Positions 9,860-10,002 of a stretch of DNA of 64,000 nucleotides are shown piece by piece (position 1 is the first letter of the stretch; each line of letters begins with the position of its first letter). The notes beneath the pieces are model-generated. The model did no database searches. It was not told where the DNA came from and worked only from the letters and a program-made list of their open reading frames with translations. Where the stretch lies: the NCBI GenBank assembly GCA_963769285.1, contig CAVYLE010000002.1, forward strand, positions 91,904 to 155,903, in the 5' to 3' direction. This DNA comes from an uncultured Verrucomicrobiae bacterium. Lineage in GTDB: Bacteria; Verrucomicrobiota; Verrucomicrobiia; Limisphaerales; UBA11358. Position numbers and translations under genes: made by a program.

Positions 9860-10002
9860 CCTGTCTGAAAATGTGGAGGCAGGCTTCCCAGCCTGCCAGT
9901 GAAAGCGGCTTCCAGCCGCGTAACTGGCCGGAAACTGGCGGCAGGATGCCGCCTTCACTGGCAGCCAAGATGGCTGCCGCTACATTTTCAGACGCGCTCT
10001 AA
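9860..10002 (+). repeat. 143-bp multi-hairpin element, family B, copy 1 (possible MITE or structured RNA)
   Basis: Identical to 62749..62890 except for one G. Terminal clamp GTCTGAAAATGT (9863-9874) / ACATTTTCAGAC (9982-9993). Four internal GC hairpins plus an inner stem CCAGTGAA/TTCACTGG. Confidence 0.85.

Follow-up and report, generated by a model that had tools for sequence, protein, structure and literature searches.

Within the window, the whole stretch of 64,000 nucleotides analysed from an uncultured Verrucomicrobiae bacterium, a segment of about 143 bp with several hairpins occurs twice in nearly identical form. A preliminary description had placed two explanations side by side, very recent MITE-like transposition or strong constraint on a structured small RNA or a protein-binding scaffold, and the question is which of them applies. 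Our data argue for the first. The element is very probably a non-coding, palindromic 143-bp MITE that carries the 18-20-nt terminal inverted repeats of an IS1031-like insertion sequence (IS) of the IS5 family, about 950 bp long, with a single ORF, GAG...CTC ends and a 3-bp TNA duplication.

MITE copy A spans positions 9857..9999 (+ strand, 143 bp) and copy B positions 62746..62887 (+ strand, 142 bp). Both were delimited by matches to the element ends and recovered with the nhmmer profile of the family, copy A at 114 bits. They had been reported as a same-orientation pair differing by one G, and within 9860-10002 and 62749-62890 this is accurate: pairwise alignment with flanks gave one G indel (GGCCGGAAAC in copy A vs GGCCGAAAC in copy B). 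Both copies are real and had been located in the right place, but identity on the left runs 6 nt further (TAAGA[A/G]), which adds a second difference, A/G at element position 3 (9859/62748), and the range 9860-10002 omits the first 3 nt of the element (GAA/GAG) and takes in the right TAA. Apart from the G indel and this A/G, identity is unbroken from TAAGA[A/G]CCTGTCTG... through ...CAGACGCGCTCTAA. Immediately past both ends the flanks of the two copies are unrelated. Since identity ends abruptly on both sides, the element does not lie within a larger duplication, which had been named as a possible objection to it. The element has no coding capacity; the one ORF that crosses copy A (9808-10002, 64 aa) has its frame shifted in copy B through the 1-nt indel. 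Both copies are intergenic as first described, with neighbouring gene ends mapped around each: copy A has the stop of a TPR-protein gene (10110) on one side and the start of tatD (9809) on the other, with the two genes on the - strand, while copy B is placed between the convergent stops of genes for an ABC permease (62654) and a GH20 hexosaminidase (63024).

What had been drawn as an outer clamp belongs, as its core, to an imperfect terminal inverted repeat, GAGCCTGTCTGAAAATGT...ACATTTTCAGACGCGCTC. In copy A the left terminal inverted repeat occupies 9857..9876 (+ strand, GAACCTGTCTGAAAATGTGG) and the right one 9980..9999 (- strand, GAGCGCGTCTGAAAATGTAG when read inward); the left one of copy B, at 62746-62765, reads GAGCCTGTCTGAAAATGTGG. 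The left ends of both copies have the consensus GA[A/G]CCTGTCTGAAAATGTGG, and the end sequence bounding the elements is GAGCSYGTCTGAAAATGTRG. A 20-nt terminal pattern matched the window four times, once per end per copy, against 0.04 matches expected from shuffled sequences. Outside these ends a TAA can be read directly from the sequence on each side, at 9854..9856 and 10000..10002 for copy A and at 62743..62745 and 62888..62890 for copy B. The search for target-site duplications was thus positive at both copies, and it was so across the family: flanking triplets were identical, and all of them TNA (TAA, TGA, TCA, TTA), in 14 of 24 complete copies. Both flanks were TNA in 15 complete copies and identical in 14 of these 15, where chance would give one in four; the family thus makes a 3-bp target-site duplication specific for TNA. 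A 2-bp TA duplication (some copies show TTA...TAA) was ruled out by the 14 copies with identical TGA, TCA, TAA or TTA.

The element belongs to a large family. A scan of one genome per species with the terminal 20-mer returned 38 loci, most of them in MAGs labelled Verrucomicrobia subdivision 3, Verrucomicrobiota or Limisphaerales; three of the matches, inside apparent coding sequence, look like chance. Complete elements measure 109-205 bp (109, 131-132, 141-144, 153, 163, 178 and 196-205 bp) and combine common ends with interiors made from similar hairpin modules. The nhmmer profile recovered all family members in the DNA examined, and one MAG, CAZKTW01, holds at least 10 loci. Counting copies genome-wide, as had been proposed, gave dozens of hairpin elements with the same termini at unrelated loci; an identical copy of the window element was not found in the one-genome-per-species scan. 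Family copies also occur in MAGs labelled Bifidobacteriaceae (L002, L007, L008, L010, L019, L021, L023, L025, L027, L033, L036) and in others whose labels, as deposited, are far from Verrucomicrobiota, L004 (Acidobacteriota) and L035 (Methylomirabilota). Mislabelling, mis-binning or horizontal spread could account for the many copies in distantly labelled MAGs.

Gluconacetobacter johannae DSM 13595 contains a 163-bp element (L032:806-968) with ends GAGCCTGTCTGAAAATG...CATTTTCAGACAGGCTC. Since its ends are the same and its interior is unrelated, it seems that this IS type has independently given rise to MITEs in a distant phylum, and the presence of the element in an alphaproteobacterium hints that the IS subgroup made MITEs repeatedly in distant phyla. 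Comparison of the Gluconacetobacter MITE, and of the IS end, with PLSDB plasmids by blastn returned nothing useful. In viral contigs the terminal 20-mer matched once, apparently by chance and not in a MITE. The segment L010:2872-4288, a candidate 1.4-kb IS, is actually an aldo/keto reductase gene between a half element and a full element. The terminal sequence, searched in the full text of papers, matched only unrelated eukaryotic or HIV primers, and literature searches found no description of this MITE family.

The ends of the element are those of an autonomous IS. In the Verrucomicrobia MAG MGR_bin444 the same terminus stands at six contig ends and is followed by non-hairpin sequence, a pattern that is the signature of a multicopy IS breaking the assembly. 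A metagenome scan with this IS-end sequence yielded complete IS copies. One of them, at L040:279-1232 (left flank GAGCCTGTCTGAAAATGTGGGG..., right flank ...CTTTTCAGACAGGCTC), has a left end identical to that of window copy B at 20 of 20 positions. The full-length copies (949-955 bp; L040, L041, L054, L055, L058) carry a perfect 15-bp terminal inverted repeat, GAGCCTGTCTGAAAA, and one ORF each, of 260 aa, with the Pfam domains DUF4096 and DDE_Tnp_1 (PF01609, 107 bits; PF13340, 97 bits); against NCBIfam NF033580 transpos_IS5_3 this ORF scored 228 bits (cutoff 110). Relatives number in the thousands, typically on contigs of ~1 kb, as expected of a repeat. The nearest named relative among annotated plasmids is ISRtr4 (48% amino acid identity), whose DNA shows an element 935 bp long, bounded by GAGGCTGCCTCAAAAAG... 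and ...CTC and flanked by a TTA/TTA duplication.

[quoted passage not shown] The present IS has a single ORF and a length of ~0.9 kb, and the 3-bp TNA duplication is shown on the MITEs; by these features we refer it provisionally to an IS1031-like subgroup, IS427 or a further group being possible instead. Unlike the MITEs, none of the five IS copies has identical flanks, although both sides are always TNA (TAA/TTA, TTA/TAA, TAA/TTA, TGA/TAA and TAA/TCA); the likely cause is that a repeat present in many copies was assembled chimerically. The 64-kb window contained no full-length IS, and tblastn detected no such transposase in the window or in MITE-bearing loci. The window element is therefore non-autonomous.

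The loci themselves provide a further line of evidence. No protein record matched the TatD of the window exactly, but TatD homologues of 91-93% identity led to contigs with the same order of TPR gene and tatD. Neither the element nor its termini occurred in the fetched DNA of nine TPR-tatD loci of relatives, and the element was also absent from the permease-GH20 spacer (~90 nt, convergent) of two relatives with 85-87% identical GH20. Absent from orthologous spacers, the element is not a conserved feature of either locus. One relative, L051, shares both spacer flanks with the window, and, in the direction of tatD, homology resumes exactly at T(T/A)A-AACTTCTTTCGTG, beside the element end; it is not a clean empty site because its spacer holds a different element. 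No clean empty site was found via TatD or GH20 homologues, the closest relatives having 85-93% protein identity and rearranged spacers.

The spacer between the TPR gene and tatD is hypervariable among close relatives, with a different repeat in each lineage: inverted tandem repeats ACATCCAACATC.../...GTTCGATGTTCGATG at L043:3920-4040 and L050:2130-2260, and a CCCCTCACCCCGGCCCTCTCCCGGGGGGAGAGGG palindrome in L044-L049 (L044:3740-3990). Directly upstream of the tatD start in the window lies a 9-nt tandem repeat (9818-9847; CACGAAATA-like, gene strand TTTCGTGTATTTCGTGTATTTCGTGGTTAA), which is conserved in L051 and recurs as an inverted pair at 49656-49696 and 49823-49863; it might serve as a promoter or operator motif, or simply represent a further repeat. 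A promoter-like site (10013-9984, - strand; TTAACA, 18 nt, GAAAAT), with 9 of 12 matches a weak consensus match only, spans the junction between an older MITE and the right end of copy A and points toward tatD. Copy A, situated within a seemingly conserved gene pair and 47 nt upstream of the start codon of tatD, could thus influence expression there.

Terminal inverted repeats, 3-bp duplications, unrelated flanks, a large family, a transposase-encoding IS with matching ends and absence at orthologous sites together bear out recent MITE-like transposition. We infer that an IS-type transposase, supplied in trans from elsewhere in the genome, would bind both ends of the element, cut it out or copy it, and insert it at TNA by a 3-nt staggered cut. 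Both window copies would stem from very recent events, as they differ at only 2 positions in 143, and this near-identity suggests that the family was recently active in this lineage. Copy A inserted at the TNA that ends the older MITE, a degenerate member of a second family with a long GTAGCAGCCGA...GGCTGCTAC hairpin (10003..10110), which abuts it. A co-transcribed element would adopt a structure of very high stability (-84 to -88 kcal/mol) and, by analogy with other bacterial MITEs, might possibly attenuate read-through or protect mRNA 3' ends.

The interior of the element needs separate discussion. All stems listed initially are present in the sequence. Hairpin H1 (9878..9897, + strand) reads GGCAGGCT-tccc-AGCCTGCC and shows compensatory changes in family members. 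The inner segment (9896..9961, + strand), bounded by the 8-bp inverted repeats CCAGTGAA/TTCACTGG, contains H2 (9905-9919) and H3 (9937-9953; loop CAGGATG). Hairpin H4 (9960..9978, + strand; 62847-62867 in copy B) reads GGCAGCC-aagat-GGCTGCC and is followed by the weakly terminator-like GCTACATTTTC. The multi-hairpin architecture is a possible fold of this sequence, yet a more stable one exists: when the two inner hairpins form separately, the energy is -73.2 kcal/mol, ~10 kcal/mol above the + strand MFE fold (-83.7 kcal/mol), in which the two inner hairpins pair with each other. The MFE fold of the - strand is a single long hairpin of -88.3 kcal/mol. The folding calculations placed the stability far beyond that of shuffled sequences on both strands and as DNA (RNA, z = -7.4 for the + strand and -8.3 for the - strand; DNA, z = -8.0). 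The palindromy is nested, the element being 74% identical to its own reverse complement, and the multi-hairpin drawing is one of several competing folds of palindromic DNA. All four hairpins appear to be versions of a single module that consists of a GC-rich stem and a WGGAW or WTCCW loop. The GGA side of the loops lies on the - strand in H1 and H2 and on the + strand in H3; the loop of H4 is AAGAT.

Covariation across relatives, another check that had been suggested, showed that compensatory changes keep the hairpins paired. In alignment A2, where the - strand of the window element is collinear with L004, L006, L035, L036 and L016, 91.7% of cells were paired and compensatory changes were present in 11 of 50 pairs, both above shuffles and slid controls; the number of compensatory changes was reached by 1 of 500 shuffles. 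None of the 500 reached the other four measures. The complementarity of the hairpins is therefore maintained. Among single-sided changes, 13 gave G·U on the aligned strand and 11 gave A·C (equivalent to G·U on the opposite strand), so no strand is preferred. In L019 and L033 the outer hairpins are alike and the ~66-bp core between the 8-bp inverted repeats is inverted with respect to the window element (84% identity inverted, 73% direct); the inner hairpins match near-exactly (17/17 and 14/15 bases) only after inversion. The MITE interior is absent from the IS, the GC-rich hairpins being specific to the MITEs. We read these observations as pairing kept by DNA-level palindrome maintenance or by orientation-independent selection, not by a strand-specific RNA gene.

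A neutral selfish repeat alone would not predict maintained hairpins, and this counts against our main explanation. The hairpin cassette could instead be a selected, orientation-independent functional module, which the IS5-type ends merely spread through Verrucomicrobiota genomes. Such a module could, for example, offer an array of sites to a host protein or one associated with the transposase, or act as a bidirectional insulator/terminator, and its central hairpin pair could flip between the 8-bp inverted repeats. We consider this unlikely. If it were true, arrays without IS ends, such as the one at 33036-33215, would be its ancestral or domesticated form. This array is made of the hairpin modules seen in the MITE (GCGGCTggaaGCCGC, GGCAGCCaggatGGTTGCC, GGCGGCAtcctGCCGCC), which occur in either orientation; it lacks the GAGCCTGTCTGAAAA ends, is bounded by CAGCCTGGCGG/CCGCCTGGCTG and CTGTATC/GATACAG and scores ~25 bits with nhmmer; it may represent an older family, a MITE of another kind or the source of the cargo.

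It is highly improbable that the element is an exapted bidirectional transcription terminator or mRNA stabiliser whose spread was host-selected rather than selfish. Each end, read outward, does consist of a GC-rich hairpin followed by ACATTTTC, and both copies are preceded by the 3' end of at least one gene. A simple terminator scan flagged the + strand of both copies, at H4 followed by CTACATTTTC; the run of T (U in the transcript) is, however, only 4 long and the count is at shuffle level (1 found, 1.4 expected). A strong terminator upstream of tatD, in the seemingly conserved TPR-tatD pair, would moreover be harmful, and such a role would add to the MITE identity rather than replace it. The MITE may possibly act as a weak terminator or stabiliser.

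The constraint proposed at the outset, on a structured small RNA or a protein scaffold, received no support. A structured small or cis-regulatory RNA under functional constraint, for example a GGA-loop protein sponge like CsrB/RsmZ, would agree with the extremely stable folding, with hairpins kept intact by compensatory changes across family members and with the WGGAW-variant loops (CAGGATG in H3), which we take to resemble CsrA-type sites. However, Rfam gave no match at gathering score in the whole window. With E up to 10, the locus attracted only microRNA-precursor models, that is generic hairpin noise: the best match within the element was to a microRNA model, at 24 bits vs a gathering score of 100, and the adjacent hairpin of the second family reached 32 vs 95. 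CsrB and RsmZ present several GGA loops on one transcribed strand, whereas here they are divided between the strands, and the inner pair is inverted in relatives. The near-equal G·U and A·C counts favour neither strand. Furthermore, the context differs between copy A (tandem genes) and copy B (convergent genes), no promoter is common to both, and relatives do not keep the element at the orthologous loci. An RNA would also leave the terminal inverted repeats, the TNA duplications and the matching IS unexplained, and we regard it as extremely unlikely.

We likewise give next to no weight to a REP, REPIN or BIME-type element, that is, GTAG-tagged palindromes mobilised by a RAYT tyrosine transposase. 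GTAG-tagged palindromes have been reported in Verrucomicrobia (PMC3733652), which counts in its favour. A GTAG stands immediately within the right end (ATGTAGCGGCAGCC, - strand), the sequence AAAATGTAGCG appears in many family members, other GTAG hairpins occur in the window and the hairpin modules are found in both orientations, as in BIMEs. No REPs or REPINs are known with 18-20-nt terminal inverted repeats matching a DDE-type IS, or with 3-bp target duplications; the present element has both, and GTAG at one end. The array at 33036-33215 bears on the origin of the cargo and not on mobilisation: because it has such hairpins without IS ends, the interior of the MITE may derive from REP-like sequence. 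Finally, segmental duplication or gene conversion, to which the near-identity and same orientation of the copies might point, has virtually no chance of having produced them in place of transposition and is refuted by the flank alignment, as identity ends exactly at TAA on both sides with unrelated flanks beyond and the same element type occupies many unrelated loci of other genomes.

Several other repeats were seen in the window. Long hairpins of the second family (GTAGCAGCCGAcGTgAgGAGGCTC ... GAGCCTCcTcACgtCGGCTGCTAC) are located at 10003-10110, ~6287-6425, 21625-21700 and 60651-60714, with a half copy at 15297-15334. The left end of the older MITE beside copy A, cAGCCTGTTaaAgAAGTAGCAG, resembles GAGCCTGTTTGAAAAGTAGCAG at L030:708, and in L030 (708-838) a second-family hairpin stands between related IS5-type ends (GAGCCTGTTTGAAAA...TTTTCAAACACGCTC), outside which TTA is duplicated (TTA/TTA). 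The window also has a reverse-complementary pair of GC-rich hairpins of REP-like appearance, GGTAGGGCGGGCAGAGGACTGCCCGCC and GGTAGGGCGCGGCACTCCGTGCGCGCC, 37 kb apart (24330-24391 and 61658-61727). The one at 61658-61727 lies inside the N-terminal 30 codons of the permease ORF as called mechanically (MSERDKIGRAGSPLPAANANDGAHGVSRPT...); this ORF is ~32 residues longer than its L052 and L053 homologues, so that translation probably starts further downstream. At 35706-35803 a perfect 29-bp inverted repeat (ACAAAGTAGCGCAGGCGTCCCGCCTGCCC / GGGCAGGCGGGACGCCTGCGCTACTTTGT, 40 nt between the arms) makes a GTAG-tagged hairpin with a weak score in the family profile. Positions 1-6400 are long, internally repetitive coding sequence with periods of 54 nt and 123-126 nt and duplicated blocks (2426-2639/5830-6043 and 2735-2799/6142-6206), which looks like large repeat-rich surface proteins. 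Four paralogous 99-nt stretches (25274-25372, 26102-26200, 28988-29086 and 30050-30148), 80-85% identical to the reference copy and each with its end in, or a few bases from, CATGG, probably represent the conserved 5' ends of four paralogous genes that neighbour one another on the minus strand.

The main use of these results is in annotation. The MITEs described here, together with one or more sister families in the window, occupy the intergenic DNA of uncultured Limisphaerales-type Verrucomicrobiota, where they interrupt assemblies, give rise to spurious ORFs (9808-10002 is an example) and can be mistaken for structured RNAs in motif screens. Their GAGCCTGTCTGAAAA ends and TNA duplications allow them to be masked. 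The current understanding of MITE biology is not changed by them: this kind of element is well known, and it is the family, from uncultured Verrucomicrobiota, that matched no Rfam family and no searched paper.

Known bacterial MITEs include RUP of S. pneumoniae, Correia/NEMIS of Neisseria, ERIC/YPAL and Nezha (listed in PMC3733652). Like bacterial MITEs, which are non-coding, 70-300 bp long and intergenic, the window element has terminal inverted repeats in the 15-30-bp range, short target duplications, stable hairpins and ends in common with an autonomous IS. Its sequence is unrelated to those of RUP, Correia/NEMIS, ERIC/YPAL and Nezha, its host is an uncultured member of the Verrucomicrobiota, and its interior, unlike theirs, consists of four modular short GC-rich WGGAW hairpins with a central pair that is inverted between members. 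The partner IS resembles the IS1031-like subgroup of the IS5 family in having one ORF with DUF4096 and DDE_Tnp_1 and TNA flanking triplets; the window element, in contrast to IS5 members, has none of the coding part. Compared with ISRtr4 of Rhizobium tropici, the partner IS is similar in length (949-955 vs 935 bp), and both have GAG...CTC ends with a ...TC.AAAA core, but the transposase is only 48% identical. Tourist-like MITEs of the plant PIF/Harbinger group make a 3-bp TAA/TTA duplication, as here, and depend on a transposase superfamily related to IS5; unlike the window element they are eukaryotic and require a second, Myb-like protein. With the RAYT-associated REPINs and BIMEs the element shares GC-rich palindromic modules that alternate in orientation, a GTAG beside the stem and a high intergenic copy number, but it differs from them in its long terminal inverted repeats, its TNA duplications and its DDE-type partner IS.
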